This document shows positions 11,298 to 42,444 of a stretch of DNA of 42,444 bases, piece by piece (position 1 is the stretch's first letter; each line of letters starts with the position of its first letter). The translations under genes and the position numbers were made by a program. This DNA is from a virus. The stretch lies in the IMG/VR virus record IMGVR_UViG_3300012347_000185, positions 1 to 42,444 of that record. One strand, 5' to 3'. The notes below the pieces were generated by a model. The model had not been told where the DNA came from and ran no database searches. It saw only the letters and a program-made list of their open reading frames with translations.

Positions 11298-11316
11298 TGG
11301 TTGCCCAATTGGAAGA
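11297..11316 (+). promoter_or_regulatory. Candidate phage-RNAP promoter, copy 3 (ATGGTTGCCCAATTGGAAGA)
   Basis: Starts at the last base of the phoH stop codon. First motif copy upstream of the structural block. Confidence 0.6.
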
Positions 11317-19932: not shown

Positions 19933-21603
19933 ATGGCGCGAGTTCAAGTGGGATATAATCCCCGTGCTGAGGCACTGCAAACTACAGCAGCCCCTAACAT
20001 TGCTACCGAACAGGCGAGATTCGATCCCCGTGCAAGCTCTGCTTTCCAGTTGGCTGAGGCCTTGGGTAAAGCACAGCCAGTCTTGGATCAATTCAACCAG
20101 GATTACGAACGCAAGAAGGCTCAGGAAGCTCTCCTTCAGAACATGAAGATTGATACCTACAAGGAGCAATTCCAGCGTGACAATGTAAGTGGTGCGGTAA
20201 CTGCTGCACAGGTCAAAGAGAGATTCCCAGAGACTGTCCCTGTAGTGCAGGCCCGTGTTGCTGAGTCCATTGGTTTTGATTTCGGTAAGAAAGAAATCAA
20301 CAGTGTGATTGATGAGATCAACAAGGATGATAGTCTCCGTCTCGATAGCGTTAAACGCAATGCTTACCTCAAGACGAAGCGTGACGAGATCGTCGGTGGC
20401 CTAGCCAAGGACAACGAGTTCTACTCCGCAGGTGTCATCAAGGCCATCGATCAGGAACTCCGTGGGTGGGAGAATGGCTGGCAGCGTGATACCGCCACCT
20501 ACCACACCAAAGTGCAGGGCGAGGCTTTCGCCAATGAGGTAGGCCAAGTGCTGGCCGCTGGTGGTGATCTCACGGAAGTTGATAAGAAGTGGGCCTCCTC
20601 GTCCTCGCTGAACAACGCTGAGCGTAAGAAGCTGGTCGTGGATACCGTTATTGCCAAGGCCTATGCTGAGGACAATCCTGCGCTTCTCGCTAAGGTTCCT
20701 ACGGTCTTCCTGAACGATGAGTACAAGAAGAACTTGAAGCAGGCCGAATTGCAAATCCAGCAGATCCGTATTAGCAAGGTCCGTGACGCTCAGTTCCTTA
20801 AGCAGAACGCTCGTGAAGAAGCCACCCGCAGTGCCAAGACCGACATGATCGGCAAAGTGGCTCGTGGGGAGCCTGTTGACCCTAGCGCCTACCGTGGTGA
20901 TCCCGAAGCCTTCAACTATGCGATGCAACTGAAGGATGCAGGCCGTCTGCCTGATGTTCAGAGTGTCTCCACTGCCACCAAGGTTCGCACTTCGATCCTG
21001 AACGGCTCCACCGTGGGCACCATGAATCAGAACCAGGTGATTGACCAGATCATGGCCAACCCTGCGATGAACCCCAAAGAGAAGCAGGCGCTGATTGCGG
21101 ATGTCCCCAAGCTGATGGAAGGCATGTTGCTCCTGAAGGACGAGGGTGTGCAGACAGCAATGTCTACTCGCATCGATGCCCGTCTGAAGGTTCTCGAAGG
21201 GTCCACCAACGCCAAGATCCAGTCGCTGATTACCGGGGGTAACCTTCGTGCTCAGGCCATGCAGGTGTTCCAGCAGGGTCTGGAGAGTTCCTTCACGGCC
21301 TACTTCGAGGACAACAAACAGTGGCCCACAGGTAAGGCTAAGCAAGAGATCATCCGTGTCGAGACCGAGAAGGCTGAACGCCTGATCGAAGAACTGACTC
21401 GTATGGGAACCACAGCGGCACCTACAGGTCCTGCCCAGGCTGCTCCTACTCGTGGTGGTCCTATGGTCCCAGCCCCTCAGGCTTCTCCTGCACGTCCGGG
21501 AGCGACTACTCGCCCTGTGCCTACTCAGGCCGACATTGATTACGTGAAGAAGAATCCGCAGTCTCGTCAACAGTTTATTAATACATTCGGAAGGGAGCCG
21601 TAA
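19933..21603 (+). CDS. Internal core protein (gp15 position)
   Basis: 556 aa, helical. Gene order supports the call. Confidence 0.7.
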   Translation: MARVQVGYNPRAEALQTTAAPNIATEQARFDPRASSAFQLAEALGKAQPVLDQFNQDYERKKAQEALLQNMKIDTYKEQFQRDNVSGAVTAAQVKERFPETVPVVQARVAESIGFDFGKKEINSVIDEINKDDSLRLDSVKRNAYLKTKRDEIVGGLAKDNEFYSAGVIKAIDQELRGWENGWQRDTATYHTKVQGEAFANEVGQVLAAGGDLTEVDKKWASSSSLNNAERKKLVVDTVIAKAYAEDNPALLAKVPTVFLNDEYKKNLKQAELQIQQIRISKVRDAQFLKQNAREEATRSAKTDMIGKVARGEPVDPSAYRGDPEAFNYAMQLKDAGRLPDVQSVSTATKVRTSILNGSTVGTMNQNQVIDQIMANPAMNPKEKQALIADVPKLMEGMLLLKDEGVQTAMSTRIDARLKVLEGSTNAKIQSLITGGNLRAQAMQVFQQGLESSFTAYFEDNKQWPTGKAKQEIIRVETEKAERLIEELTRMGTTAAPTGPAQAAPTRGGPMVPAPQASPARPGATTRPVPTQADIDYVKKNPQSRQQFINTFGREP

Positions 21604-24600
21604 TGGCGACTGATATTCCAGGTTGGGCCAAAGAGGCAGAGCCTCAGGCAATTCCAAGCTGGGCATCTGCACCGGACAATGCGGCAGTGCCCTCGTGGGC
21701 ATCTGCACCAGCTCCTGCTCCTCAGACTCGTTCACAGCCTGTGGCGCAACCAGCAGCTAGTCCAGAAGCCAACGTCAAGAAGTTCTTGGACTTCCTTGGA
21801 CGAGCTGAGGGTGCCGACTACAACACCATCGTTGGTGGCAGCAAGTTCTCGGACTTCCGTGCTCACCCTCGGGTTGTCGGCTTGACCACCAAGGAAGGCC
21901 CCAGCACGGCTGCAGGTAAGTACCAGATCCTAGGGTCTACCTATGACGACATCGCCCCTAAGATTGGTGTGCGAGACTTCTCTCCAGACAGCCAGGACAA
22001 GATTGCCCTTGAGCTGATCCGCCGTAAGGGTGCTCTCGAAGATATCCGCAACGGCAACTTCGATGCAGCCGTGGGCAAACTGGGGGGTATCTGGGCATCC
22101 CTGCCTAGCTCTCCCTACAGTCAACCCAAGCGTAGTGCTGAGTGGGTCGCCAAGGAACTCGGTTCCCCTACGACTGTTCAATATCAGAACTTCGCCCCTG
22201 TCCGTCAGAACGTTGATCCTGCATCTCTGAACAAGGATCAGGATTGGCTCCGTGCCTCAGAGTTGCTCTACAGCTTCTATGAGCGGAAACCCTTCCAAGG
22301 CACAAAGGATGAACTTGCAGAGTGGGGTAAGGACTCCCTAGGCAACTTCAACTTCAACCTCGTGTCCATGGCAGAGATCGCCTACTCCCTCCAGAGTGCC
22401 ACTCAGGAAGAGAAGGAAGCCTTCCTGTTCATGATGGATACCTATGACAACACCAACTTCTCACTCGAAGGAGCGGGGAGGGCGGCTAAGGGTATCGTCA
22501 CCGATCCTACCAACTTGGTTGGCCTGGGTACTCTGGGTGTGGGCTTCATCGGGAAGTTCGCAGGTAAGCAAGCTGCCAAAGCTGGCATCCGTAAGCTAGT
22601 CCTCGACTCCCTTGCCCGTACAGGTATCGGCGCTGGTATCCAGTCCGGTGTGGTTGGAGCTGCAGACAGCACGATCCGTCAGGGCATCGAGGTATCCGCA
22701 GGTCGCCGTGAGGAGATCGATCTCTCCAAGGTGGGTGTGGATGCCGCTATCGCTGGTACCGCTGGTGTGATCCTCGGTACGGCTGCAGATGCTGCAGTGA
22801 CTAAGGTCGTGGGTGCCATCAAGGGCCGTAAGGCGATCGATACCCCTAACGTACCTGGAGAGGCTCCTAAGGCCCCTACAGACTCCGATCCCAACGTGTC
22901 AGGGGTAACCCCTCCAGTTGATCCTAAGTCTCCTACAGGCCTGTCTCCCGCAGAAGAGATTGGGCTGATCCAGCGCCAGCAAGATGGCCGTCTGCCTGCC
23001 GATGAGATCGTACCCAATGTGGGTGCAGACGTACCCAAAATCGATGTGCCTCAGTCCAACACAGGCCTCCGCACAACCCGCCTGACCGATGAACCTGTAG
23101 CTCCCTTGAGCAAGGTAGAGTTGGCCCAACAGGCTGACGTGGTGGTCACCCAGCTCCGTGATATCGAGACCAAGGATCTCCCGGCTGTCCTGGAGACTCT
23201 CCGCACTCGCAGTGACCTGTCTCGTGAAGAGATCCGGGTGGTCGATAAGGCTGTCCAGAACTACAAGAACGAGGTGGTTGTCGAGCTGGCTACACTCCGC
23301 AAGGAGCGCATGGCACTGGATGCAAAGACAGCCCTGAGTGAACCTGAGGTTATCCGTCAGCAGGAACTCAACACCCGTATCGAGGATCTCGAAGCACGGG
23401 TTGGATCAGCCCAGTTGGCAGATGATGCCACAGGCTCGATGGCTGGTTCCATCCTTCAGGATCGTCAGGACCCCATGAATGCCCTCAAGGGTGTCACGGT
23501 GGAATCCATCATGGCCGAGAAGGGTGTCACCAAGGTCGAGGCTGAACAGGTCTGGGCTGAGATGGTGGGCAAGGCTCACCTGCAGTCCGAAGGCCAGAAG
23601 ATCTCTGCGGTCTACGACGACATGGCCACCAAGGCTCTGGAAGCGGATGACCTTGAGGGAGCCATGAAGGCCTCCATCCTCAAGAACCGTGAGTTGGACG
23701 CAAAGATCGAAGCTCTGGCCCCCAAGGGTGCCTCCTTCGTGGACAAGCTGACTGAGTTTGCCATCTCCAACGTGTTCTCCATCAAGACGATCATCATCAA
23801 CTTGATCCCTTCGGGGATGAAGACGCTGGTGATCCCTGGATTGAAGGCAATCCTGAACAATCCCTTCGAGAAAGCCACACGAGCTGAGGCTGCTGCGTCC
23901 TATTCGGCCATGAGGTCGTCCTTCGGAGCAGCTTTGAACGCAGCCAAGAGTGGTTTCCGGTACGAACAGGCAATCCTGAGCCGTGACGGAACACGTTTGG
24001 TCGAAGGTGAGATGGCCATGACCGGGAAACTGGCCGGGGCCTGGCGTATCTTCCCCCGAATCCTCAATGCCTCCGACGAATTCCTCTCCCGGCTTAACTA
24101 CGACTCGTTCGTGGCTGGTAAAGCGGCTGCTGAAGCGGCCATGGAGGGGACCGAGAAGGGTTTGAAGGGTAAGGCACTGGACGATTTCATCTCAGAGGCC
24201 TCCAAGAAGGCTCTCGATGCGTCCATGAAGCCCACTTCGGGTGACGAACTGGTGCAGCCGATCATCAACAAGGGCCTGAATCTGGGTCTGACGGGTGAGG
24301 ACCTCTTCAAGTACGTCGAACGGGAAGCTGTCAGGGACCCTCAGTCACTCCGAAAGGGTAACGACGAGGACGCTCTGAACTTTGTTCGCGATGTTCTGTA
24401 CAAGCGCAAGTTCTCTGGCGAAGGCAGCATGTCCAAGGCGGCTCTGGCCTATGAAGATGCCATGAAAAAGTTCCCGACGCTCAAGCTGGTCATTGGCCAG
24501 TTGTTCTTTAGAACACCGATCCGGGTCTTTGAGGAGGGCATTCGCCTGACTCCTGGCCTACAGTTCGTGGCTCCTAACTTCATGAAGGATCTTGCAGGTG

Positions 24601-31809: not shown

Positions 31810-33471
31810 ATGACCCCATCCAAACATCCAGCCCTGGCAGACTTCAGGGTATTCATGTTCCTCGTGTGGAAACACCTTGGTCTCCCAGAGCCTACTCCGG
31901 TTCAATACGACATTGCCCATTACCTACAGAACGGACCTAGACGATCCGTCATCGAGGCCTTTCGAGGGGTAGGCAAGTCTTGGATCACCTCAGCGTTTGT
32001 CTGCTGGTTGATCCTGAACAACCCCCAGTTGAAGATCCTGGTGGTGTCTGCCTCCAAGGAACGAGCTGATGCCTTCTCCACATTCGTCAAGAGGTTGATC
32101 AACGAGATCCCCATGCTGCAACACCTGAAGCCTCAGGATGGCCAGCGGGACTCTGTGATCGCCTTTGATGTGGGACCAGCTACCCCAGACCACAGTCCCT
32201 CGGTGAAATCCGTGGGTATCACTGGGCAGATCACGGGTTCCCGTGCAGACATCCTGATTGCTGATGACGTGGAGGTACCCAACAACTCCTCCACCCAGAT
32301 GATGCGGGATAAACTCTCGGAGGCTGTCAAGGAATTCGATGCGATCTTGAAGCCTGGTGGCCGTATCCTGTACCTCGGTACCCCTCAGACAGAGATGTCC
32401 CTGTACAACCAGCTCCCAGAGCGTGGCTATGAGGTCCGTATCTGGCCAGCCCTGTACCCAGAGTTGCAGCAAGTGATCAAGTACCAGGGCAAACTGGCCC
32501 CGATGATCACCAAGGCACTGGAGGCTTCTGCAGATAACGCTGGGATGCCTACGGACTCCAAGCGATTCGACGAGGCAGACCTGCTGGAGCGGAGAGCTTC
32601 CTACGGTAAGGCAGGCTTTGCCCTCCAGTTCCAGCTCGACACGTCTCTGAGTGATGCCGATCGATACCCTCTGAAGGTCTCAGACCTGATCATCCAGAAT
32701 CTGGGTCCTACCATGGGGCACCTGAAGTTGGCATGGGCTGCTGCACCAGAACTGTGCATCAATGACATCCCCAATGTGGCTCTCACAGGGGACAGGTACT
32801 ACCGACCCATGTGGCACTCTGACGATATGTCTGAGTACACCGGGTCTGTCATGTCCATCGACCCCTCTGGTCGTGGTAAGGACGAGACAGGCTATGCCGT
32901 GGTCAAGGCTCTGGCTGGTAACCTGTTTCTCACAGAAGCTGGAGGGATCACCGGAGGCTATGAGCTGGAGACACTCGAAGCTCTGGCCTATGCAGCCAAG
33001 AGGAATCAGGTCAAGTACATCGTCATCGAGGCTAACTTCGGTGATGGTATGTTCACCCAGCTCCTCAAGCCTGTCCTTCAGAGGATCTACCCCTGCACTG
33101 TGGAGGAGGTAAAGCACTCCACCCAGAAGGAAGCCCGTATCATCGACACCCTTGAACCTGTGATGTCCACACATAGACTCATAGTGGACCAGAGGGTGAT
33201 CCAGAAGGACTTCGACACAGCTAAGGATGTCAAGTACTCCCTGTTCTACCAACTCACCCGTATCACCAGAGACAGGGGAGCCTTGGTTCATGACGATAGG
33301 TTGGATGCCTTGGCTATTGCTGTGAACTACTGGACCGAGACCATGGCCAGAGACAACGACAGAGCAGCCTCAGATATCCGTGGGACAGCCATAGATAAGG
33401 AACTGAAGAAGTTCATGGGGAGTGTCCTAGGGATGAAACCTAAGGCAACCTCATGGATGTCTAGATCCTGA
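31810..33471 (+). CDS. Terminase large subunit (T7 gp19-like)
   Basis: 553 aa. Walker A-like FRGVGKS, ILIADDVE Walker B. Last gene of the structural block. Confidence 0.93.
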   Translation: MTPSKHPALADFRVFMFLVWKHLGLPEPTPVQYDIAHYLQNGPRRSVIEAFRGVGKSWITSAFVCWLILNNPQLKILVVSASKERADAFSTFVKRLINEIPMLQHLKPQDGQRDSVIAFDVGPATPDHSPSVKSVGITGQITGSRADILIADDVEVPNNSSTQMMRDKLSEAVKEFDAILKPGGRILYLGTPQTEMSLYNQLPERGYEVRIWPALYPELQQVIKYQGKLAPMITKALEASADNAGMPTDSKRFDEADLLERRASYGKAGFALQFQLDTSLSDADRYPLKVSDLIIQNLGPTMGHLKLAWAAAPELCINDIPNVALTGDRYYRPMWHSDDMSEYTGSVMSIDPSGRGKDETGYAVVKALAGNLFLTEAGGITGGYELETLEALAYAAKRNQVKYIVIEANFGDGMFTQLLKPVLQRIYPCTVEEVKHSTQKEARIIDTLEPVMSTHRLIVDQRVIQKDFDTAKDVKYSLFYQLTRITRDRGALVHDDRLDALAIAVNYWTETMARDNDRAASDIRGTAIDKELKKFMGSVLGMKPKATSWMSRS

Positions 33472-33479
33472 GGAGATCT

Positions 33480-33499
33480 ATGGTTGCCCAATTGGAAAG
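33480..33499 (+). promoter_or_regulatory. Candidate phage-RNAP promoter, copy 4 (ATGGTTGCCCAATTGGAAAG)
   Basis: 9 nt after the terminase stop. Confidence 0.55.
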
Positions 33500-33619
33500 G
33501 TTACTTTCTGAGGGAATATCTTGAGTGCGAATAGCTACTTGAGGTACCGGCTTTAGCTGGCAGGTCCTCATGTCGTGCTCAGGATGCTCCTTAGGGGGAC
33601 CTGGCGATATGGGCACCAA

Positions 33620-33696
33620 CCCACTCTCTATTCTAATTATAGATGCTGTAAGCAAATTGTAAGCTCCCAGTATCTGTAAATAGAATAGAGAGAGGG
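33620..33696. repeat. 16-bp inverted repeat (15/16) with 45-bp spacer
   Basis: CCCACTCTCTATTCTA (33620-33635) and TAGAATAGAGAGAGGG (33681-33696). Confidence 0.7.
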
Positions 33697-33754
33697 AACA
33701 GGTAGCCTATATCCGCTAGGATACCCTCTATAGTATACAATTCTAAGATAACTT

Positions 33755-34174
33755 ATGGATATACCAAAGGATAGACCAGAGGCTTTGTCTCTAGGTATGG
33801 ATATTTATTACGGTAATGAGTGTAAACATTGTGGTACCACAGTAAAGAGAGTCAAGAAGTATGACTGCCTAGAGTGTCACAGGGTTGCTCGTAAAGGCTA
33901 TCTCAAGGATTTCCGCAAGACTCCTAAGGGGAGGGCTGTTAGACGCTCTCAGAAGATCCTTAGAGACCGTACACAACGACAGGCCATGCCTCCTTGGGCT
34001 AACCGAGAGAAGATCCTAGAGATTTATCTGAAGGCTCGTGAGATGGGGATGCATGTGGATCACATCGTTCCGTTGAACCATGGGTTGGTCTGTGGGTTAC
34101 ACAACGAGTTCAACCTACAGCTTCTTCCGCCAGACGAGAACATTGCCAAGAGTAATCTCTTTGAGGTGTCTTGA
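33755..34174 (+). CDS. HNH endonuclease (second copy, unrelated in sequence to the first)
   Basis: 139 aa. Cys pairs CKHC...CLEC, then HVDHIVPLNHGLVCGLHNEFNLQLLPPDENIAKSN (H-N-N/H core). The surrounding segment is AT-richer. Confidence 0.85.
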   Translation: MDIPKDRPEALSLGMDIYYGNECKHCGTTVKRVKKYDCLECHRVARKGYLKDFRKTPKGRAVRRSQKILRDRTQRQAMPPWANREKILEIYLKAREMGMHVDHIVPLNHGLVCGLHNEFNLQLLPPDENIAKSNLFEVS

Positions 34175-34440
34175 GGGGTCCAGAATAATTTGGTAGAAAA
34201 ATATGTGACCTATACCGCATATTGTCGAGCGGCTGAGTCCCCCTCGGCCCCTACCGTGTGCGCCCGGGCGATCCACGCACGTTGACGGGCGCGGTATTGC
34301 CTGCCCGATACCGCCCACGTTGACACGCGAGGTGTCCCAAGGGGCTGTAAGTTGTTGATTTCATTGGAGTTTCACTAGCTCAGAAAGCTAGTTGGCACCA
34401 TGCGCGTGACATCCTGCGGGTGTGCGAGGTTGTCCCAAGG

Positions 34441-34473
34441 TTATCCACAGGACTTATCCACAGGTTATGCACT
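34441..34473 (+). promoter_or_regulatory. DnaA-box cluster: two perfect TTATCCACA boxes plus one degenerate box
   Basis: TTATCCACA at 34441-34449 and 34454-34462, and TTATGCACT at 34465-34473. All are direct repeats in non-coding DNA. Confidence 0.5.
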
Positions 34474-34543
34474 GTGTTGGTGCGTTTGCATCAGTTCGTT
34501 TTTACTGTGTTTTTATACAGTACTTTGAGACATCCTCAGGTCA

Positions 34544-34683
34544 CACCTCAAGCTCACCTCAAGCTCACCTCAAGCTCACCACCAGACCACCACCAGATCA
34601 CCTCAAGCTCACCACCAGGTGACACCTCAGGACCTCCACAGATCTGCCCTCAGATCACCTCAAGCTCACCACCAGGTGACACC
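34544..34683 (+). repeat. 11-bp phased tandem array (CACCTCAAGCT / CACCACCAGNT) with an embedded 31-bp perfect direct repeat
   Basis: Seven contiguous 11-mers at 34544-34620. GATCACCTCAAGCTCACCACCAGGTGACACC occurs at 34596-34626 and again at 34653-34683. Confidence 0.9.
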
Positions 34684-34686
34684 CTC

Positions 34687-34725
34687 AAGCCTCAAGCACT
34701 CCACCAGTGCCTGGGGCTTTTTTTT
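34687..34725 (+). terminator. Candidate intrinsic terminator closing the repeat array
   Basis: AAGCC..GCACT-CCACC-AGTGC..GGCTT two-tier stem, immediately followed by T8. Confidence 0.5.
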
Positions 34726-34843
34726 CTGATCTAAGGGTTTGTCCTAATAACTTTTTTTTCATCGGTCGGTTTTTGCCTGTTTTTCTCGATAAAATTCAGC
34801 TCATGCACAGCACACCGCACAGTGCAAACCTGGAGATCACCTC

Positions 34844-35047
34844 ATGAGCTACACTATCACCCGCAAGGTACTTAACGCGATCAAGCCCTACACTGTCACC
34901 ACCCGCGACAGCGATGGCGACACCTTCAAACACAAAGCCTGGAGCACACGTGAGGCTCTGGCCTGGGCTAAGTGCTACGGGCAGGGCTGGGGCACCACTA
35001 CAATTCAAACCCGCACAGGTCGCTTTGTGGCCTCTGTTACCCGCTGA
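34844..35047 (+). CDS. Early hypothetical protein (67 aa)
   Basis: ATG preceded by CCTGGAGATCACCTC. First ORF after the non-coding hub. Confidence 0.6.
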   Translation: MSYTITRKVLNAIKPYTVTTRDSDGDTFKHKAWSTREALAWAKCYGQGWGTTTIQTRTGRFVASVTR

Positions 35048-35066
35048 TTCACCTGGAGATCACACC

Positions 35067-35204
35067 ATGCAATTCGACCGCAACATCTTTACCGACCGCA
35101 AGCCCTCATTCACAGAGCGCCTCGCAGATCTGGCCCTGGCCATTGTCCTGGGTCTCACCTTCGCTGCGGGTCTCCTGCACTGGTGCGATGCACTTTTTGC
35201 TTGA
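35067..35204 (+). CDS. Early small membrane protein (45 aa)
   Basis: ATG preceded by CCTGGAGATCACACC. Hydrophobic LALAIVLGLTFAAGLL. Below the ORF-track cutoff as a Met-started ORF. Confidence 0.5.
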   Translation: MQFDRNIFTDRKPSFTERLADLALAIVLGLTFAAGLLHWCDALFA

Positions 35205-35266
35205 TCCATCGCTTGCCATCTGACAATCATTTCCAACACGCAACTATTCACCCTGGAGCTTCTATC

Positions 35267-35947
35267 ATGCCCTACACCGCACACCTCACCCTCAAGTCAC
35301 GTAATGAAAAAGTCGGCCCGATCCCTGTGAGCACCACAGAGGCCAAGACCTGCCCTCAGTCCTGCCCATTCAAGAAAAATGGATGCTACGCTGATGGCGG
35401 CCCTCTGGCCCTGTTCTGGGGCAAGGTCTCCAGAGGTGAGGCAGGTCTGCCCTGGGGTGAATTCTGTGGCCAGATCGAGGCCCTGCCTGATGGCCAGCTC
35501 TGGAGGCACAATCAAGCGGGTGATCTGCCCTCCGCTGATGGCCAGGTGATCGACCACGCCGCACTGATGGACCTGGTCAACGCAAACCAGGGTAAACGAG
35601 GCTTCACCTACACTCACCACGATGTCACCAGGCAGGAAAACGCAGACAGCGTGTTGCTGGCCAACCTGCAGGGCTTCACTGTGAACCTCTCAGGCAACAC
35701 CCTGGCCCATGCTGACACCCTCGCAGCTCTCCAGATCGGCCCTGTGGTCTCTGTGGTGCCTGAGGATCACCCAGAGCACAGCACGACACCTGCAGGTCGC
35801 AAGGTGGTGGTCTGCCCAGAGCAAACGGGCAAGGCCAAGAACTGCGTGGAGTGCGGCCTCTGTCAGAAAATCGACCGCAAGGTGATTGTCGCCTTCCGTG
35901 CCCACGGTGTCAGCAAAAAGAAGGCCATCGCCATCGCTCGTGCCTGA
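35267..35947 (+). CDS. Early Cys-rich protein (226 aa), possibly GP88-like family
   Basis: CPQSCPFKKNGCYADGGPL near the N-terminus and CPEQTGKAKNCVECGLCQK near the C-terminus, suggesting metal or Fe-S ligands. The family assignment is from memory only. Confidence 0.7.
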   Translation: MPYTAHLTLKSRNEKVGPIPVSTTEAKTCPQSCPFKKNGCYADGGPLALFWGKVSRGEAGLPWGEFCGQIEALPDGQLWRHNQAGDLPSADGQVIDHAALMDLVNANQGKRGFTYTHHDVTRQENADSVLLANLQGFTVNLSGNTLAHADTLAALQIGPVVSVVPEDHPEHSTTPAGRKVVVCPEQTGKAKNCVECGLCQKIDRKVIVAFRAHGVSKKKAIAIARA

Positions 35948-35964
35948 TCACTTGCCAAGTGGCA

Positions 35965-35984
35965 ATGGTTGCCCATCTGGGTCA
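35965..35984 (+). promoter_or_regulatory. Candidate phage-RNAP promoter, copy 5, degenerate (ATGGTTGCCCATCTGGGTCA)
   Basis: Shares the upstream half and about 23 nt of 5' flank with copy 1. The downstream half differs. Confidence 0.4.
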
Positions 35985-36047
35985 CACCAGAGGGCAACTG
36001 TGGACACCTTGCGCCCTCAGTCCTGGGGCACACCTGGAGCTTCTATC

Positions 36048-36266
36048 ATGCGATTATTCAACGCAGGCCAGACCGTGGCCTTCTCCTCAAAATTCCTCAA
36101 GTCCACCCAGGCCCATGAGCTGGCCAGATCTCGCGGTGAGGTCCTGGAGGTGGCCTCAAGCGGTGGCCTGGTGCTGGTGGCTGTGCGGTGGTCTGATGGC
36201 CGGGTGACCCGTGCCCTCCACCAGAACCTGGTCGCAGCAGACCGCATCCACCTGGAGGCTGTATGA
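36048..36266 (+). CDS. Early hypothetical protein (72 aa)
   Basis: ATG inside a 19-nt leader (CCTGGAGCTTCTATCATGC) identical to the one at 35252-35270. Confidence 0.6.
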   Translation: MRLFNAGQTVAFSSKFLKSTQAHELARSRGEVLEVASSGGLVLVAVRWSDGRVTRALHQNLVAADRIHLEAV

Positions 36267-36487
36267 GCACCAGGGCACACCCTCCAACCTATTTTGGAGA
36301 CTCTGTGAGGATCTCCTATCATGGCCCAGGGCCTGATCACGACCTGGTGGTGCAGCGGTGGTCTGATGTCTCTGGAGGGTGGCACGACGTGCGGACCTTC
36401 GATCACACCTTCGATTTTGCCTGGTCTGACGCGAGGCTGTACGCTGCAGCTCTGGCCTCCAGCATGCGCCGCGAGGTGAACCCGTGA
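36263..36487 (+). CDS. Early hypothetical protein (74 aa)
   Basis: ATGA overlap with the upstream gene. Confidence 0.5.
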   Translation: MSTRAHPPTYFGDSVRISYHGPGPDHDLVVQRWSDVSGGWHDVRTFDHTFDFAWSDARLYAAALASSMRREVNP

Positions 36488-36813
36488 GCGCCGATCTCCT
36501 GGCCCAGCTCCAGGCCTTCGCACAGGCCCATGGTGGCAAGCTCAGGACAGGCCCACAGGCCCGGAAACCCGAGAGTTGTCCACAGGCCCCATGCGAGGGT
36601 TGTCCACAGGCCCTCACGGGTGGGTCTGCCCTCGCGCCCTCACGCGCACAGGTATGCGCCCACGCACCTGCAGGCACCCGCGAGAGCGCCCGAGAGGCCC
36701 ACGCAGGGAGTCCGCCTTGCATAGGGCGCACCCAGCCCGTCCAAAAGCCCCAAAACCGCGACCCGTGGCTTGACTACACGGACGACTATTCACTGTGGAA
36801 GCAGGGTCAATGA
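36484..36813 (+). CDS. Doubtful ORF (109 aa) in a very GC-rich segment
   Basis: GTGA overlap with the upstream gene. Several frames are open on both strands here, and the segment contains DNA-level repeats, so coding status is uncertain. Confidence 0.35.
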   Translation: MSADLLAQLQAFAQAHGGKLRTGPQARKPESCPQAPCEGCPQALTGGSALAPSRAQVCAHAPAGTRESAREAHAGSPPCIGRTQPVQKPQNRDPWLDYTDDYSLWKQGQ

Positions 36814-36825
36814 CCCCACAAACTG

Positions 36826-36850
36826 AAAGGCCTTAGCATAGGGCCTTTTG
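36826..36850 (+). terminator. Candidate intrinsic terminator
   Basis: AAAGGCC (36826-36832) pairs with GGCCTTT (36842-36848), followed by T-rich sequence. Confidence 0.55.
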
Positions 36851-36855
36851 GTGTG

Positions 36856-36867
36856 TGCTATACTCAC
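36856..36867 (+). promoter_or_regulatory. Candidate host sigma70-type extended -10 (TGcTATACT)
   Basis: TG-n-TATACT immediately after the terminator and upstream of the 36988 operon. Confidence 0.4.
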
Positions 36868-36987
36868 GCACAGCCCAGGTCATCGCACCTGTGCCCCGCT
36901 GATCTTTAACAATCCCCAAGAGTACAAGCATAGGGCGCACCCTGCCATTCGGTGGGGTCTCTGTGTTTGTACCATTGGAGATTCAAC

Positions 36988-37140
36988 ATGACCGAAAATG
37001 ACAAGTTGACAGCCCAAGAGGTTGTCCGTGGGTCTTGGCCCACCTGGCCCTTCACTCGCTTAGGGCGCAAAGACATGACCGATCTCATCAAGAAGCTGGA
37101 GCAGGAGAAGCGAGAGCAACTTGAGGAGGCACTGCTGTGA
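36988..37140 (+). CDS. Early hypothetical protein (50 aa)
   Basis: ATG preceded by TTGGAGATTCAAC. First gene of a chain of overlapping small ORFs. Confidence 0.5.
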   Translation: MTENDKLTAQEVVRGSWPTWPFTRLGRKDMTDLIKKLEQEKREQLEEALL

Positions 37141-37316
37141 CTGAAGAAGATTACATCATGCTGCAGATACGGATACTCCAAGAGGCGCACCAGAAGACCT
37201 TGGAGCCATACTTCCAACGCTTGTATTGGATTAAGGCCCTTCAGCCATCTCCTCCGATTTATGTGCGGTTCTTTGACGGCCCCAATCCAGTCCCCTTTGG
37301 TTGGGAGGCCCCATGA
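37137..37316 (+). CDS. Early hypothetical protein (59 aa)
   Basis: GTGA overlap upstream and ATGA overlap downstream. Not in the ORF track. Confidence 0.4.
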   Translation: MTEEDYIMLQIRILQEAHQKTLEPYFQRLYWIKALQPSPPIYVRFFDGPNPVPFGWEAP

Positions 37317-37462
37317 CCACAGAACACCTCATCGTAGGAGCCACAGGCATCGGATACCTGATCGTGGGTGTCTTGCAGTGGTCCAAAGGCGAACTCTCAA
37401 ACGGTATGATCTGGACAGGCTATGCCTTCGCCCAGGTCGGTTTATGGATGAACATCAAATGA
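37313..37462 (+). CDS. Early two-TM micro-protein (49 aa)
   Basis: MTTEHLIVGATGIGYLIVGVLQW...MIWTGYAFAQVGLWMNIK. ATGA overlaps at both ends. Not in the ORF track. Confidence 0.45.
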   Translation: MTTEHLIVGATGIGYLIVGVLQWSKGELSNGMIWTGYAFAQVGLWMNIK

Positions 37463-37683
37463 TCTCAGAAATCGATATCAAGGATATGGCAGAGCAGCCA
37501 GCACAGTACAGCGACATCGTTTCTGATGGCGGCTTTGACCCACGCAACAAGTTTGATGTCCCAACACAGCGCACATGGGTTGGGCTGACGGATGAAGAAA
37601 TACTAATAATGAGTAGATACGATTTAGAGTATGCCGCTTTAATTGGGGAAGTGCAAAGAAAACTCAAGGAGAAGAACACATGA
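37459..37683 (+). CDS. Early hypothetical protein (74 aa)
   Basis: ATGA overlap with the upstream gene. Acidic. Confidence 0.5.
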   Translation: MISEIDIKDMAEQPAQYSDIVSDGGFDPRNKFDVPTQRTWVGLTDEEILIMSRYDLEYAALIGEVQRKLKEKNT

Positions 37684-37895
37684 AAACAGCACTCTTCATC
37701 GAGGACACGCCAGCAGGTCTCAAAACGAAGTTCGTGTGGCAGGCCAATGGCCACATGGACCACGCTGCAGAGTCCATCGCCATGAATGTCATGGCCAACC
37801 TCACCCTGTTCATCAGGGACATGGAGGACAAGAAGCTGGTCAGGTTGGTGAAAGAGGGGCCGGGGGATAACCCTCAGTCTTCTACGGTAACCTGA
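37680..37895 (+). CDS. Early hypothetical protein (71 aa)
   Basis: ATGA overlap with the upstream gene. Confidence 0.5.
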   Translation: MKTALFIEDTPAGLKTKFVWQANGHMDHAAESIAMNVMANLTLFIRDMEDKKLVRLVKEGPGDNPQSSTVT

Positions 37896-38175
37896 GCTGC
37901 AGCTTCATGAAGGCGTCACGGATTGCCGCTGATTCGGATCTGAATGGTCCGTCCTCGTCGAAGTCCGTGACCCTTCCCCTCTGGGTTCTCATCCAGTACC
38001 AGCCGCCATACCTCAGAGGTTCCTCGCTTATACGGGCTGAGTTCCAAACCTTTGTGGTATTTCGACTGGCGAAATAGACCTTCACGCCTGCCTTCTTGAC
38101 AGTCTCAATGAACGCATCTGGTAGTCTCACGCTTTCCTCCGTGAAAATGTTGCCACCAGACAAAAGTGGAGCCAT
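37882..38175 (-). CDS. Hypothetical protein (97 aa from ATG; 102 aa from TTG at 38190), the only credible minus-strand gene
   Basis: Convergent with the early operon (14-nt tail overlap) and divergent from the MarR-like/integrase genes. Not antisense to any + gene. Confidence 0.55.
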   Translation of the reverse strand: MAPLLSGGNIFTEESVRLPDAFIETVKKAGVKVYFASRNTTKVWNSARISEEPLRYGGWYWMRTQRGRVTDFDEDGPFRSESAAIRDAFMKLQLRLP

Positions 38176-38205
38176 GGCAACGATTGTCAATTAGGCATAC
38201 TGCGG

Positions 38206-38230
38206 GTTTCCACACTTACCAAGTGGAAAC
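38206..38230. promoter_or_regulatory. Candidate operator: perfect 8-bp inverted repeat GTTTCCAC-N9-GTGGAAAC
   Basis: Lies in the 119-bp divergent intergenic region between the minus-strand gene and the MarR-like gene. Confidence 0.5.
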
Positions 38231-38235
38231 AGTCA

Positions 38236-38264
38236 TTGACACAGAGTCGCACCTGAATCATGAT
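38236..38264 (+). promoter_or_regulatory. Candidate sigma70-type promoter TTGACA-N17-CATGAT for the regulator/integrase operon
   Basis: Perfect -35, 17-nt spacer, 4/6 match at -10. About 30 nt upstream of the MarR-like start. Confidence 0.45.
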
Positions 38265-38294
38265 CCTGCGGTCTAAACCCCTAAGGAATGAGAG

Positions 38295-38642
38295 ATGGTT
38301 GTGCCCCTGAAGGATGCAATTCAGCTAATTCAAGGGATCTCCCAAATAGAACCGGAGATGCCCTTGCAGCAACTACATGTACTACTCCTCATTGCGGAAG
38401 CAGGGGAGGGGACATCACTTACAGACCTGGCCAAGAAAGCAGGCATAGGTCTAGCAACTGCGTCTCGTTATGTTTCCGCACTAGGCAAACAGAACAGGCA
38501 CAGGCAGGAGGGGCTACTTCTAGTAGAATCCTTCGAGGACCCTATGGAAAGGCGAAAAAAGATAATTCGCCTGACAGGTAAGGGTAAATCCGCACTCATG
38601 AAACTGATAGGAGAACTGAATGCCCATCTACCAAAGGGGTGA
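38295..38642 (+). CDS. MarR-family-like winged-helix transcriptional regulator (candidate repressor)
   Basis: 115 aa. SLTDLAKKAGIGLATASRYVSAL...GLLLVESFEDPMERRKKIIRLTGKG fits the MarR HTH plus wing pattern. Confidence 0.75.
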   Translation: MVVPLKDAIQLIQGISQIEPEMPLQQLHVLLLIAEAGEGTSLTDLAKKAGIGLATASRYVSALGKQNRHRQEGLLLVESFEDPMERRKKIIRLTGKGKSALMKLIGELNAHLPKG

Positions 38643-39657
38643 TGCCTTCATGGTGTCAGTCGGAAGTAAGGGAAACCGCTACCGACAGTCCTTCAAGACC
38701 AAACAGGAAGCTGAACTGGCAGAACTGCAGGCATTGACCCGCCTGAAGGCCTCAGGAAGCCCTCTAGAAGCCTCTACAAGCCCCCCAATTGATGTAGTTA
38801 AGGGCTACACACTCAAGGATGCCCACGACCTCACCTGGAGGCTCTACTGGAAAGGTGACAAGGGCAAGGGTTGCCACGAGGTGACCATCAACTGTGTCTT
38901 TCGGACGATCCCGAGTCAGACACTGCTGACCGATATCACTCCCGCAATGGTCCTTGAGGCCATCGAAGAATGGGAGGATGAGGGCAACTCAGGCTCTACG
39001 GTCAACCGCAAGGTGTCTCACATCTCCAAGATGCTGAACACCGCAGCGGAGCAGGGGTGGATCAATGCTGTCCCCAAGCTGCCCCGCAGGAAGCCTGGCA
39101 AGCACCGCATCCGGTGGATGGCCGAGCAGGAGGAGCTGAGGGTCCTGAACGCCTGCACCCAGTTGGGTCTGGACGATCTGAGGGACTTCATCGTGGTGGC
39201 CATCGACACTGGCTTCCGTAGGTCGGAGCTGCTGGGCCTCGTGTCCAACGACTTCGTCAACGGGATGGTCCAGCTCCACGCTGGGTCCACCAAGAGCGAC
39301 AAGGCGAGGGCTGTCCCGGCTACCCGTAGGGTGTCCGAGATCCTCACCCGCAGGTCTGTCAACAGGAAGCTCTTCGACTTCCAGTTCCACACCCTGAGGG
39401 CACGTTGGCTGTCCCTGAAGTCCCACCTAGGGATGGACGATGACACCCAGTTCGTCATCCACATGCTGCGCCATACGTGTGCATCTCGGATGGTCCAGAG
39501 GGGTGTCAACCTGGCCGTGGTTCAGCAGTGGATGGGTCACTCCAACATCGCCACCACGCTACGGTATGCCCACCTTGCACCTGACAGCCTGGCCATCGGA
39601 CGTGAAGCCCTTGAGCAAGTATCCACAGTTCCTCTCTTGAGGGCTGTGAACTGTTGA
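38620..39657 (+). CDS. int: Tyrosine integrase/recombinase
   Basis: 345 aa with GGAG RBS. Catalytic-domain signature: TGFRRSELLGL (Arg), HMLRHTCASRMVQRG (H-x-x-R), GHSNIATTLRYAHL (Tyr). Confidence 0.9.
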   Translation: MPIYQRGDAFMVSVGSKGNRYRQSFKTKQEAELAELQALTRLKASGSPLEASTSPPIDVVKGYTLKDAHDLTWRLYWKGDKGKGCHEVTINCVFRTIPSQTLLTDITPAMVLEAIEEWEDEGNSGSTVNRKVSHISKMLNTAAEQGWINAVPKLPRRKPGKHRIRWMAEQEELRVLNACTQLGLDDLRDFIVVAIDTGFRRSELLGLVSNDFVNGMVQLHAGSTKSDKARAVPATRRVSEILTRRSVNRKLFDFQFHTLRARWLSLKSHLGMDDDTQFVIHMLRHTCASRMVQRGVNLAVVQQWMGHSNIATTLRYAHLAPDSLAIGREALEQVSTVPLLRAVNC

Positions 39658-39750
39658 AACTGAGTTGTCACAGGCCATTGAGCTGTGACATTTGGACTCC
39701 TTTTAGGGACGTTGTGACAACCTAAGTGATTGGAAATACACGGTAAGTAC

Positions 39751-39808
39751 AGCTTGAGGTGCTAGTAACTTAACCGTTGTGGAGGTTCGAGTCCTCTCGA
39801 CCGCACCA
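39751..39808 (+). other. Candidate attP core: 3' two-thirds of a tRNA-Leu(GAG)-like gene
   Basis: Anticodon loop TTGAGGT (39754-39760), GCTAG stem strand, long variable arm, T arm GGAGG-TTCGAGT-CCTCT, acceptor strand CGACCGC, then A and CCA. There is no matching 5' acceptor strand or D arm upstream. Confidence 0.6.
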
Positions 39809-39830
39809 ATCATCCCTAAGGGAAACTGAA

Positions 39831-39867
39831 GAGAACTCCTTGTAAACCAAGGGGTTCTCTTTCGTTT
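39831..39867 (+). terminator. Intrinsic terminator downstream of the tRNA fragment
   Basis: GAGAACTCCTTG-TAAAC-CAAGGGGTTCTC (12-bp stem with one G-T pair), followed by TTTCGTTT. Confidence 0.7.
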
Positions 39868-40004
39868 GACCCCTATAGTTTCCATATGGAATCAATTGTT
39901 CATAGACAACCCTTGCACTAGGGAAATCTTGTGACAACTTTTGTGTCACAGCTGGGACAACTCCTTGCCACTAGACAACCCTTTCGAACAGAGAGGGAAC
40001 GTCT

Positions 40005-40024
40005 ATGGTTGCACAATTGGATAG
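40005..40024 (+). promoter_or_regulatory. Candidate phage-RNAP promoter, copy 6 (ATGGTTGCACAATTGGATAG)
   Basis: 110 nt upstream of the RNAP start codon. Confidence 0.55.
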
Positions 40025-40081
40025 ACAAGAGAGATCTAGAGATAGACTCTGAGATAATCCTCAAAGATATCTTCTCTAGGT

Positions 40082-40099
40082 TATACTCATGTATACTCA
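40082..40099 (+). promoter_or_regulatory. Tandem TATACTCA -10-like boxes upstream of the RNAP gene
   Basis: TATACTCA at 40082-40089 and 40092-40099. The same TATACTCAC occurs at 36859-36867. No good -35 seen. Confidence 0.3.
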
Positions 40100-40133
40100 C
40101 CTATAGTTACCACCACAACAGGAACCATTAGAA

Positions 40134-42444
40134 ATGCAAAACTTTAACCTTGAAGAAGACTTGATGTCACTCCAGATTCAACTGGAGGAGGGGATGACCC
40201 AACGAGGCGCTGAGAAGTACCTCCGGGATGTCTCCAAGGCCATCTCTGCTGGCCGTGAGGAGTCCACCGCATACGGGACAACCATCCTGTCCCACCGCCT
40301 GGAGACCCTCTCCAAGGCCATCGACGAGTGGAAGCAGGTCACCTCCAAGGGTTCCGCTGGGGTGCGCTCTGCGACCTACCCCAAGGTCAAGGACGTAGAC
40401 AGCCGTTTGCTGGCCTTCCTGACCCTCAAGAGCGTCCTGTCGGGCATCTCCAGCCTCAGGACCCTCCAGTTCGTCGGAGTGGCCATAGGGTCGGCTGTGG
40501 AGGACGAGCTGCGGTTCAGCCTGATCCGGGAGACCGAGCGCAAGGCCTACGAGAAGCTGGTCATCGGTGCCAAGAAGCGCACCTCAGGTCACTACCGCCA
40601 CATGTACGCCGTGCGTCAGGCAGATCGTCTCGAGGATGGCTGGAAGCGGTGGGCCCGGACTGACCGCCTCCATGTGGGCATCAAGCTCCTCGACCTGTGC
40701 ATCCAGTCCGTGGGTCTGGTCGAGCTAACCCACCAGAAGGTTGATAAAGATCAATCGATCAAGTACGTGAAGGCCCTGCCCGAGACCCTCGACTGGATCG
40801 AGAAAAAGAACGAGGTCACCCAGTTCCTGCGCCCCGTCTATGAACCCATGGTCGTGATCCCCCGTGATTGGACCACGCCCTTCAACGGGGGGTACATCAG
40901 CTCCAACATCAAGCCCTTGAAAATGGTCAAGACCAAAAACAAGGCCTACCTAGACGAGCTGAAGAACACCGACATGCCCATCGTCTACGAGGCCGTGAAC
41001 GCCCTGCAGAGGACCGCATGGCAGATCAACAGCCAGGTGCTGGAGGTCATGGAGGAACTGTGGGCCACAGGGTCTGAGATCGCAGGGTTGCCTCCTCGTG
41101 AGGGTCTCCCATTGCCCACCAAGCCTCACGACATCGACTCGAATGAGGAAGCCAAGCGTGAGTACCGCATCAAGGCGGCAAAGATCCACGTTCAGAACCT
41201 CTCCCTGCTGGGCCAGAGGATCGGCTTCAACATGGCTCTGGGAATCGCTCGTCGCTACGAGAAGTTCCGCAAGATCCACATGCCCTACCAGTTGGACTTC
41301 CGTGGTCGGATCTACGCGATCCCCCACCTGAATCCACAGGGGGCAGACTTTCAGAAGGCGCTCCTGCGGTTCGCCAATGGGAAACCGTTGGGGTCTGAGG
41401 GTTGGAAATGGTTGGCAATCCACGGTGCCAACGTTGCAGGCTACGACAAGGCCAGCTTTGAAGACCGTGTCAATTGGGTACAAGACAATGAAGATGAAAT
41501 TATCGCTATCGCATCAGACCCTTACAACAACCGAGGGTGGTGTTCTTCTGTGGGAGATGTGGAGATTGACAAGCCCTGGCAGTTCCTTGCCTTTTGCTTC
41601 GAGTGGGCCGGTTTCACCGAGCATGGTGAGTCGTTCGTATCGAAGCTGCCCGTGGCTATGGACGGTTCATGCTCTGGCATCCAGCACTTCTCGGCAATGC
41701 TACGCGATGAAGTCGGAGGATCTGCAGTCAACCTCGTCCCCAGGGAGCTTCCAGCAGATGTCTACCAGCTCGTGGCCAACAAGGTTATGGAACAAGTTGA
41801 GCACGATATTCTGCACGGCACCGAGGACGAGCTGAAGCACACCGAAGCCGGGGTTGCCTACGTCAAGCAGGGGACCAAGGCCATCGCTGCCCAGTGGAAG
41901 GAGTTTGGGATCACCCGCAAGGTGACCAAGCGATCCGTCATGACGCTGGCCTACGGGTCCAAGGAGTACGGCTTCAAGGAGCAGCTCATGGAGGACATCC
42001 TGCGTCCCGCCAAGCAGTCCAACAAGCCCTTCCCCTTCCAGGGTGACGGCTACCAGGCTGCTCAGTACATGGCCAAGGCGATCTGGGTCTCCGTGAACAA
42101 GGTGCTGGTGAAAGCTGGCGAGGCCATGAAGTGGCTCCAAGGTGCCGCCTCTCTGGCAGCATCTGAGGAACTCCCTGTCCGCTGGTCTACCGCCGTGGGC
42201 TTCCCCGTGATGCAGGCCTATGCCGATCTGGAGAAGCGCAAGGTCAAGACCGCGATCAACGGGAAGCTGGTGTACCTGACCATGTACCAAGACAAGGACA
42301 ATCTGGACCGCCGCAAGCAGTCCTCAGGGATCGCCCCCAACTTTGTCCACTCCTGCGATGCAGCACACATGATGCTGACCGTGACGAGGGCCAAGCAGGC
42401 AGGCATCGACAACTTCGCCATGATCCACGACTCGTTCGGGACCA
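40134..42444 (+). CDS. T7-like single-subunit RNA polymerase, N-terminal and central part (runs off the window; continues at base 56)
   Basis: MQNFNLEED... Contains YQLDFRGRIY, PWQFLAFCFEW, MDGSCSGIQHFSAMLRD, TRKVTKRSVMTLAYG, HDSFGT. Joined with 56..258 it gives an 837-aa protein. Confidence 0.95.
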   Translation, partial: MQNFNLEEDLMSLQIQLEEGMTQRGAEKYLRDVSKAISAGREESTAYGTTILSHRLETLSKAIDEWKQVTSKGSAGVRSATYPKVKDVDSRLLAFLTLKSVLSGISSLRTLQFVGVAIGSAVEDELRFSLIRETERKAYEKLVIGAKKRTSGHYRHMYAVRQADRLEDGWKRWARTDRLHVGIKLLDLCIQSVGLVELTHQKVDKDQSIKYVKALPETLDWIEKKNEVTQFLRPVYEPMVVIPRDWTTPFNGGYISSNIKPLKMVKTKNKAYLDELKNTDMPIVYEAVNALQRTAWQINSQVLEVMEELWATGSEIAGLPPREGLPLPTKPHDIDSNEEAKREYRIKAAKIHVQNLSLLGQRIGFNMALGIARRYEKFRKIHMPYQLDFRGRIYAIPHLNPQGADFQKALLRFANGKPLGSEGWKWLAIHGANVAGYDKASFEDRVNWVQDNEDEIIAIASDPYNNRGWCSSVGDVEIDKPWQFLAFCFEWAGFTEHGESFVSKLPVAMDGSCSGIQHFSAMLRDEVGGSAVNLVPRELPADVYQLVANKVMEQVEHDILHGTEDELKHTEAGVAYVKQGTKAIAAQWKEFGITRKVTKRSVMTLAYGSKEYGFKEQLMEDILRPAKQSNKPFPFQGDGYQAAQYMAKAIWVSVNKVLVKAGEAMKWLQGAASLAASEELPVRWSTAVGFPVMQAYADLEKRKVKTAINGKLVYLTMYQDKDNLDRRKQSSGIAPNFVHSCDAAHMMLTVTRAKQAGIDNFAMIHDSFGT
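42390..42444 (+). repeat. 55-nt terminal overlap identical to bases 1-55 (circular-assembly closure)
   Basis: Direct comparison of both ends shows every base identical. Confidence 0.98.

Follow-up and report, generated by a model that had tools for sequence, protein, structure and literature searches.

A divergent region between an orphan minus-strand gene and a MarR-fold regulator-integrase operon, with repeated candidate operators, in a T7-like phage genome

Introduction

Can T7-like phages lysogenise, and how could a phage that runs its own RNA polymerase be silenced? These questions are raised by a locus in the virus record IMGVR_UViG_3300012347_000185 of IMG/VR, positions 1 to 42,444, which are the whole stretch of DNA analysed here (42,444 bp, hereafter the window). 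In this locus (37882-38642), a lone minus-strand gene and a regulator gene of the MarR fold are transcribed away from a shared intergenic region, and an integrase gene follows the regulator. An earlier note on this DNA saw in the locus the layout of a temperate-phage immunity switch, placed it in an otherwise obligately lytic phage, and regarded a repressor-type partner for integrases in T7-like marine phages as, to its knowledge, not established.

The pairing of regulator and integrase is a known module and not a new one. A MarR-family gene directly upstream of an integrase has been annotated in HTVC019P-type pelagiphages, P-SSP7 (gp0.7), S-CBP2, CRP-804, RHEph01, and LUZ100, and tblastn matches our regulator to the annotated MarR genes of HTVC019P, LUZ100, P-SSP7, S-CBP2, and RHEph01. 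A repressor-type partner had thus been put forward before, as a hypothesis: MarR-based control of the choice between lysis and lysogeny in T7-like phages was proposed by Boeckman et al. 2022 (Virology 568:86), as cited in PMC10134795. As this model is recounted in PMC10134795 and PMC11321410, MarR represses expression of the polymerase through sites on either side of the promoter that precedes the polymerase gene. The transcript map of LUZ100 runs in the order P3, MarR, integrase, T4, phi1, and polymerase (PMC10134795).

Our study makes it fairly probable that the divergent region is the control node of a regulator-integrase lysogeny module in a temperate-type T7-like phage of a Hyphomicrobiales host, in which a repressor would act on repeated 16-bp operators and the divergent minus-strand gene would be one of its targets. 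What we consider new here is the orphan family of the minus-strand gene, a defined operator sequence with its map, and a pair of GANTC motifs in the promoter of the regulator.

Results

The divergent region was aligned in ten loci (related loci are given L-numbers), and three blocks proved invariant: TTGTCAA (38190-38185), TT.CCA..TGGAAAC (38215-38230), and TTGAC (38236-38240). Between the first and the second lies a variable stretch, different in length and in sequence from one relative to another. The third block opens P_marR, a rightward promoter (plus strand, 38236-38264) with TTGACA at 38236-38241, a spacer of 17 nt, and CATGAT at 38259-38264. This promoter, already described in the earlier note as facing the regulator and the integrase, was also returned by our promoter scan (10 of 12 matches); its spacing is conserved, and its position is that of the experimentally mapped host promoter P3 in LUZ100. 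The first block, invariant in 10 of the 10 aligned loci, carries the -35 box of P_minus, a leftward promoter (minus strand, 38162-38190); this box reads TTGACA (38190-38185) and had been taken for a TTG start codon in the list of open reading frames. A spacer of 17-18 nt leads to a weak candidate -10 box, ACTTTT or CTTTTG (38167-38161), whose position we infer only from this spacing. The leftward promoter proposed earlier, TTGGTA-N17-TATGCC, does occur in the sequence of the minus strand, but it sits in the variable stretch and was rejected in favour of the conserved -35 box.

The second block is the core of a 16-bp palindrome, CTTACCAAGTGGAAAC in the window, which we call O1 (38215-38230; family consensus GTTGCCAAGTGGAAAC) and which ends 5 bp before the rightward -35 box. 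It has just the right arm in common with the perfect inverted repeat that first drew attention to the region, GTTTCCAC (38206-38213), N9, GTGGAAAC (38223-38230). That repeat is present at 38206-38230, its pattern is unique in the window, and the observation is real and non-random: about 0.04 such 8-bp repeats are expected in the 164 bp of the intergenic region, and the genome as a whole is not enriched in them (8 perfect 8-bp inverted repeats with a spacer of at most 12, versus 10.3 +/- 3.2 expected). Its distal left arm, the perfect complement of 38223-38230, is however variable, being kept only in the nearest relatives (in L005 as GTTCCCAC, in L006 with an indel), and the conserved operator is the shorter element at 38215-38230, in which all the columns of TT.CCA..TGGAAAC are invariant.

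In order to map this element, a weight matrix for the 16-bp operator was built from the related loci only, with the window excluded. O1 is the top match in the window (21.1 bits) and was found again in 8 of 9 loci outside the matrix-building set, often together with sites before the polymerase gene and in the early region. A weak and degenerate copy, O2 (GTTGCCACCAGACAAA, 38149-38164), lies over the -10 and start region of P_minus; in 8 of the 10 loci the best match falls in this fixed register, 19 bp after the leftward -35 box, with 18.4 bits in L006, 14.0 in L011, 13.6 in L016, and 6.0 in the window. A second strong copy, O3a (GTTTCCATATGGAATC, 39878-39893, 20.6 bits), stands between the terminator that follows the phage attachment site (attP) and the RNA polymerase gene, and it is found in all aligned relatives as well as in several loci outside the matrix set. 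In the early region, the copy CTTGCCAAGTGGCAAT (35951-35966, 18.4 bits) adjoins the phage-promoter-like sequence GGTTGCCCA, and relatives have comparable early-region sites 2-2.5 kb upstream of the minus-strand gene. Two further operator-like sites score 13.7 bits each. One lies at 35212-35227; the other (TTTACCAGTTGGCAAT, 262-277) begins 4 bp past the polymerase stop codon, adjoins the candidate phage promoter at 278-295, has an equivalent after the polymerase stop in L016, and is within the chance range if taken alone. These five best matches in the window (starting at 38215, 39878, 35951, 35212, and 262) are non-coding without exception. A further candidate, 'O3c' at 39964-39979 (TTGCCACTAGACAA), is now regarded as ambiguous, as it contains the integrase arm-type repeat TAGACAAC.

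Both halves of the operator are symmetrically conserved, and it is a perfect palindrome in L005 and L011. The sites are absent in L013, which has the minus-strand gene and no regulator, and they are kept in L175, a close relative that lacks the minus-strand gene and retains O1, the promoter, the regulator, and the integrase; for this reason we assign them to the regulator and not to the minus-strand protein. Among other phages, a similar palindrome was met only in LUZ100, where it is a different one, lies downstream of P3, and is not repeated near the polymerase gene.

The promoters of the phage polymerase itself can be proposed from a second motif, GGTTGC(A/C)CAATTGGA(A/T)(A/T), which recurs in intergenic positions at 278-295, 2131-2148, 11299-11315, 33480-33499, and 40007-40024. 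The last of these (GGTTGCACAATTGGATAG, plus strand) is directly upstream of the polymerase gene (40134), and the motif is most simply read as a phage-polymerase promoter equivalent to phi1 of LUZ100.

A further feature of P_marR is its two GANTC motifs (38244-38259), GAGTC at 38244-38248 and GAATC at 38255-38259. All 10 loci have the pair, as does L175, with a central base that varies freely, in a genome where GANTC is strongly depleted (112 observed versus 209 +/- 13 expected). P_marR may be a promoter sensitive to methylation by CcrM; since no such pair was found upstream of the MarR genes of RHEph01, CRP-804, LUZ100, the Limnohabitans phage, and BB8, the pair is specific to this clade and the link to CcrM is only a lead.

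The regulator (38295-38642, plus strand, 115 amino acids; phrog_9665) is a winged-helix protein of the MarR fold, as the earlier note had recognised. In Pfam it passes the cutoff of HTH_IclR (30.9 bits, cutoff 22) and misses those of MarR (22.1 versus 24.6 bits) and MarR_2 (22.4 versus 27), and NCBIfam returns sub-threshold MarR/IclR matches only. Its AlphaFold2 model has a predicted local distance difference test (pLDDT) score of 81, and the top 50 Foldseek matches in the PDB are all MarR-family proteins (Rv1404, BpsR, MarR, MepR, MexR, and others), with probability 1.00 and template-modelling scores of 0.5-0.66. The regulator carries the wing motif D-x-R-x5-LT-x2-G in the form DPMERRKKIIRLTGKG, and it is shorter than the 135-150 amino acids typical of its structure matches in the MarR family.

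Special attention was given to the minus-strand gene (37882-38130). The open reading frame found mechanically reaches 38190, and the earlier note gave the gene 97 amino acids. The conserved core of the protein opens with (M/V/L)RLP, which corresponds to a GTG at 38130 in the window, preceded by the Shine-Dalgarno sequence GGAGGAA (minus strand, 38134-38140, read from the sequence); relatives keep a GGAGG-like block at the same place. Its product is therefore probably one of 82 amino acids and not of 97, and the intergenic region measures 164 bp instead of 119. That the gene is real and protein-coding, as first supposed, follows from its 174 homologous protein clusters (64-93% identity, many on contigs of 41-42 kb) and from its ratios of non-synonymous to synonymous substitution rates, which are 0.07-0.18 against 11 relatives.

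The product is basic (isoelectric point, pI, about 10) and belongs to an orphan family. AlphaFold2 predicts an alpha-beta-alpha-beta-beta-alpha fold with a pLDDT of 90.6. None of our structure, profile, and family searches revealed a recognisable DNA-binding fold, and none related the protein to Cox or Apl. In Pfam the single match, to DUF1674, stayed below threshold, and the longer distant homologues had no Pfam match; PHROGs, NCBIfam, and PADLOC gave none, nor did tblastn against 50,697 phage records or a profile search against the sequences of the PDB. Foldseek against the PDB returned nothing with an E value below 0.7, the weak matches resembling double-stranded RNA-binding domains, and the only match in BFVD was a viral homologue, itself uncharacterised. 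About 100 clusters of related proteins of 80-160 amino acids came out of a profile search of 1.8 billion representatives; some of the distant ones have tails rich in lysine and arginine, which hint at nucleic-acid binding.

Among the 20 viral contigs in which the regulator reaches 60% identity or more, 19 have the gene divergently upstream of it, and this linkage holds despite integrase identities of 45-94%. Other occurrences are of a different kind: in the T7-like phages L013/L015 and L141, homologues lie antisense beside the DNA polymerase gene with no regulator, L166 likewise has the gene and no regulator, and a homologue is found in a 59.7-kb contig that is not T7-like. Taken together with L175, these cases indicate that the gene, though its coupling to the regulator is stable within this clade, is mobile and can be dispensed with. 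T7-like genomes that carry it also carry an integrase wherever the available stretch is long enough. In one assembly, the 71,532-bp ENA contig NODE_2 from which L013 and L014 derive, a replication block of about 16 kb with the antisense homologue occurs twice between differing flanks; it has the look of a concatemer, or of a chimera between two related T7-like phages, and not of a prophage.

Downstream of the regulator, and overlapping it by 23 nt, lies a tyrosine integrase gene (38620-39657, plus strand, 345 amino acids; Phage_integrase, E=6e-23; phrog_1), whose product is 50-51% identical to the integrases of Ralstonia phage DU_RP_I and Bordetella phage BB8. It is followed by a complete attP: a 58-bp core (39751-39808, plus strand) that is the 3' part of a tRNA-Leu(GAG) gene and is 100% identical to tRNA-Leu genes of Alsobacter, Rhodoblastus, and Methylobacteriaceae. 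The core is flanked by a perfect and conserved inverted repeat in the P arm, TGTCACAG-N9-CTGTGACA (39666-39690), and by five direct repeats of the form (T/G)(G/A)GACAAC (39714-39979), which are probable arm-type sites of the integrase; L011 has four tandem copies of the arm-type repeat on one side. An intrinsic terminator follows (39823-39867, plus strand; 15-bp stem, -30.2 kcal/mol, z = -5.2) and is kept in relatives. With such an attP, its arm-type repeats, and its terminator, the genome can no longer be called obligately lytic in its other features. Different relatives carry different tRNA variable arms at attP. In L004 and L152, about 1.3-1.7 kb with extra open reading frames lie between the integrase and polymerase genes, and in L004 this insertion (1.3 kb) is bracketed by two tRNA-Leu 3' fragments with differing variable arms, as though attP had taken up cargo. 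The differing arms and the L004 insertion between tRNA fragments suggest past integration and excision.

The attP also bears on the host. All 120 genome matches to its tRNA pattern are Alphaproteobacteria, mostly Hyphomicrobiales, so that the host is probably a member of this order and probably not a marine one, contrary to what had been assumed. By capsid protein, the closest cultured relatives are phages of Ralstonia, Bordetella, Rhizobium, Pseudomonas (LUZ100), and Limnohabitans; cyanophages are absent among them.

The identical 55-bp ends of the window (1-55 = 42390-42444) indicate a circularly assembled genome of about 42.4 kb, and the polymerase gene, which starts at 40134, is split by them and continues at 56-258. 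In its gene content the phage is a T7-like podovirus, with primase/helicase, DNA polymerase, ribonucleotide reductase, portal, capsid, tail proteins, and large terminase. Past the terminase, small early genes (33.7-37.9 kb) lead to the divergent region and the integrase, and 480 bp of non-coding DNA then separate the integrase from the polymerase gene. Several other observations were made along the genome. GRCGYC is nearly missing (2 observed versus 36 +/- 6 expected), and this scarcity suggests that a host restriction site is being avoided; GATC is over-represented (288 versus 194 expected). The early region contains an 11-bp tandem array of CACCTCAAGCT (34544-34613, 6.4 copies, with degenerate copies to about 34700) and, downstream of it, a T-rich stretch resembling a terminator. 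Near-identical translation-initiation regions (CACCTGGAGCTTCTATCATG or CACCTGGAGATCAC..CATG) occur at 35249-35269, 36030-36050, 34828-34847, and 35050-35069, and two of the early genes that share them have operator-like sites in front. Long antisense open reading frames (up to 444 amino acids, for example 20401-21735 on the minus strand) overlap plus-strand genes; these other long minus-strand frames had no family match, mostly overlap plus-strand frames of which several are family-matched, and appear to be shadow frames. A plus-strand frame of 556 amino acids (19933-21603) had no PHROG match, a scan of 33400-40400 with Rfam gave a chance microRNA match only, and ARAGORN found no complete tRNA.

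Discussion

These results can be joined into the following mechanism. A host promoter of the sigma-70 type at 38236-38264 would drive an operon of the MarR-fold repressor and the integrase. The repressor, presumably as a dimer, would recognise the 16-bp palindrome, and a site 5 bp from the -35 box is consistent with the habit of the MarR family. Through O1, just upstream of the -35 box of its own operon, the protein would regulate its own synthesis; through O2, which covers the -10 box and start site of P_minus, the promoter back-to-back with that of the operon, it would keep the minus-strand gene repressed; and through O3a, between the attP terminator and the polymerase gene, and the additional sites by phage promoters and in the early region, it could act on the lytic programme. 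A single protein could in this way turn off early transcription at the same time as expression of the polymerase and of the minus-strand gene, and the repetition of the operator is probably what would let a single repressor silence the phage. The minus-strand gene would be transcribed only at low repressor levels, and only from its own promoter of the host type. We read it as the divergent target of the regulator, as its layout is the textbook arrangement of a MarR locus.

In bacterial MarR loci such as marRAB and mepR/mepA, the regulator is divergent from its target, palindromes of 16-20 bp lie between them, and the regulator represses both itself and the target. Our region agrees with these loci in its divergent regulator, in the palindrome within the shared intergenic region, and in the fold; it differs in that the regulator has only 115 amino acids, with a model that lacks the last C-terminal helix and scores below the Pfam MarR thresholds, shares an operon with an integrase, and has candidate operators spread over several phage promoters. 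The cassette of LUZ100 and the HTVC019P-type phages has the same plan: a homologous MarR-fold gene is directly upstream of a tyrosine integrase and co-oriented with it, and the module sits after the early genes and before the gene of the phage RNA polymerase. LUZ100 further shares the host-type promoter before the regulator, the terminator after the integrase, and the phage promoter before the polymerase, and both LUZ100 and the Limnohabitans phage have a tRNA-Leu sequence at the place of our attP. Candidate repressor sites near the polymerase promoter are also what the model of Boeckman et al. describes, as it is cited in the LUZ100 work. In contrast to those cassettes, this clade has the divergent minus-strand gene, whose own conserved promoter is overlain by an operator copy (no such gene lies next to the regulator in the annotated relatives that we examined), an operator whose sequence and multi-site distribution are defined here, and the two GANTC motifs.

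Comparison with lambda CI/Cro shows how far the immunity switch suggested in the earlier note holds. The conserved divergence (19 of 20), the invariant -35 boxes and operator, and O2 in 8 of 10 loci mark a genuine regulatory node. With lambda it has in common a pair of divergent promoters and a set of repeated operators, graded in strength, that lie between these promoters and over them. A lambda-type switch of two repressors, however, is not demonstrated. O2 overlaps P_minus while O1 is upstream of both core promoters; there is one repressor-like protein, co-oriented with the lytic genes, and the second protein is no recognisable repressor; operators also lie far away, at the polymerase gene and phage promoters, in a phage whose lytic programme is run by its own RNA polymerase. 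Co-inheritance of both partners, as in a lambda-type pair, is not found either, given that L175 lacks the minus-strand gene and L013, L141, and L166 lack the regulator.

It is important to note several points that weigh against the proposed lysogeny module. First, a search of bacterial genomes for prophages with the module, as had been suggested, gave none: no relative of the minus-strand gene was found in 185,579 representative genomes, and no integrase, regulator, or polymerase was found beside the 120 matching tRNA-Leu genes, in collections that may lack the host. The roughly 30 metagenomic loci, and the viral loci, are likewise all in the phage configuration, none of them integrated. As no integrated copy was found, lysogeny is unproven, as it is for LUZ100. 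Second, O2 is weak in the window itself, at 6 bits, and O1 overlaps neither core promoter, so that repression of P_marR is not forced by the geometry. Third, the operator resembles the phage promoter motif, which has one extra base between its halves, and some operator sites might be promoter variants. Finally, the MarR-fold protein is the presumed binder on the grounds that it is the only recognisable DNA-binding protein nearby and that its family has such habits.

The alternative that survives best, although we find it doubtful, is a bistable switch in which the minus-strand protein is an antagonist like Cox or Apl, that is, an anti-repressor or a factor of the Cro kind, an excision directionality factor, or a combination of these. 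In phages P2 and 186, a small gene (cox and apl, respectively) is transcribed away from an operon of repressor and integrase (C-int and cI-int). Our region has the same layout, with repressor and integrase co-transcribed and a small protein of 82 amino acids encoded opposite. The high pI of this protein and a conserved polar helix (RNTTKVWNSAR) would suit binding to nucleic acids, as would the lysine- and arginine-rich tails of its distant homologues. Repression through O2 is the logic expected of an excisionase, and no other candidate excision factor is held in the module. Tight co-inheritance with the regulator and the company of an integrase in the T7-like genomes point in the same direction. 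Against this, the protein has neither fold nor sequence likeness to DNA-binding proteins or excisionases, and, unlike Cox and Apl, no helix-turn-helix or winged-helix fold; its homologues by the DNA polymerase gene (L013/L015, L141) do without regulator and operators, one lies outside the T7-like phages altogether, and L175 keeps the rest of the module without the gene. Unlike in P2 and 186, the promoters are back-to-back and not face-to-face, and the small gene is alone instead of leading a lytic operon. A Cox/Apl-like role in excision or anti-repression is thus, in our estimate, a minority possibility. The most far-reaching form of this view, speculative and in our judgement unlikely, has the minus-strand protein as a structurally new second component of lysogeny of the Cox/Apl kind, kept off through O2; its derepression would then lead to excision, to antagonism of the repressor, or to both, and the two GANTC sites would tie the decision to methylation by CcrM, and hence to the stage that an alphaproteobacterial host has reached in replication and in its cell cycle.

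A second alternative is that the module is no longer, or never was, lysogenic. The regulator would then be a timing device of the lytic cycle, shutting off early transcription by the host polymerase and gating synthesis of the phage polymerase, and the minus-strand gene would be an early gene of host interaction that its orientation insulates. Three lines of evidence suit this view: no prophage was found in any of the collections searched, the operators adjoin phage promoters and extend to the early region, and LUZ100 gave no stable lysogens even though its operon was transcribed during infection (PMC10134795). It is nevertheless unlikely, since the integrase is intact, the attP core keeps 58 bp of perfect tRNA identity between arm-type repeats, and the differing tRNA variable arms of related phages suggest ongoing integration and excision; related pelagiphages, moreover, are reported in bioRxiv 10.1101/410191 to integrate.

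The third alternative, in which the 16-bp palindromes are variant promoters of the phage polymerase, or sites of a host factor or of the minus-strand protein, can draw on their likeness to the phage promoter motif, one base of spacing apart, on the two sites (262 and 35951) that directly adjoin such promoters, and on half-sites so invariant that covariation between regulator and operator is uninformative, but it is improbable in view of the symmetric conservation and the perfect palindromes expected for a dimer, the absence of sites from L013, and their retention in L175.

Conclusions

The reading that we prefer, a repressor-integrase lysogeny module that acts through repeated operators, bears on whether T7-like phages can lysogenise and on how a phage with its own RNA polymerase could be silenced. 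The MarR-based model has so far been a proposal without mapped operators, and this clade provides a concrete operator sequence together with a map of several sites, which spans the regulator's own promoter, the divergent gene, the region upstream of the polymerase gene, and the surroundings of phage promoters. The attP leads to Hyphomicrobiales and not to marine cyanobacteria, and in this way tells where lysogens should be looked for. The minus-strand protein, conserved yet uncharacterised, is a candidate additional player in the system; if it should prove to be an excision or anti-repressor factor, it would represent a new protein family for that role.

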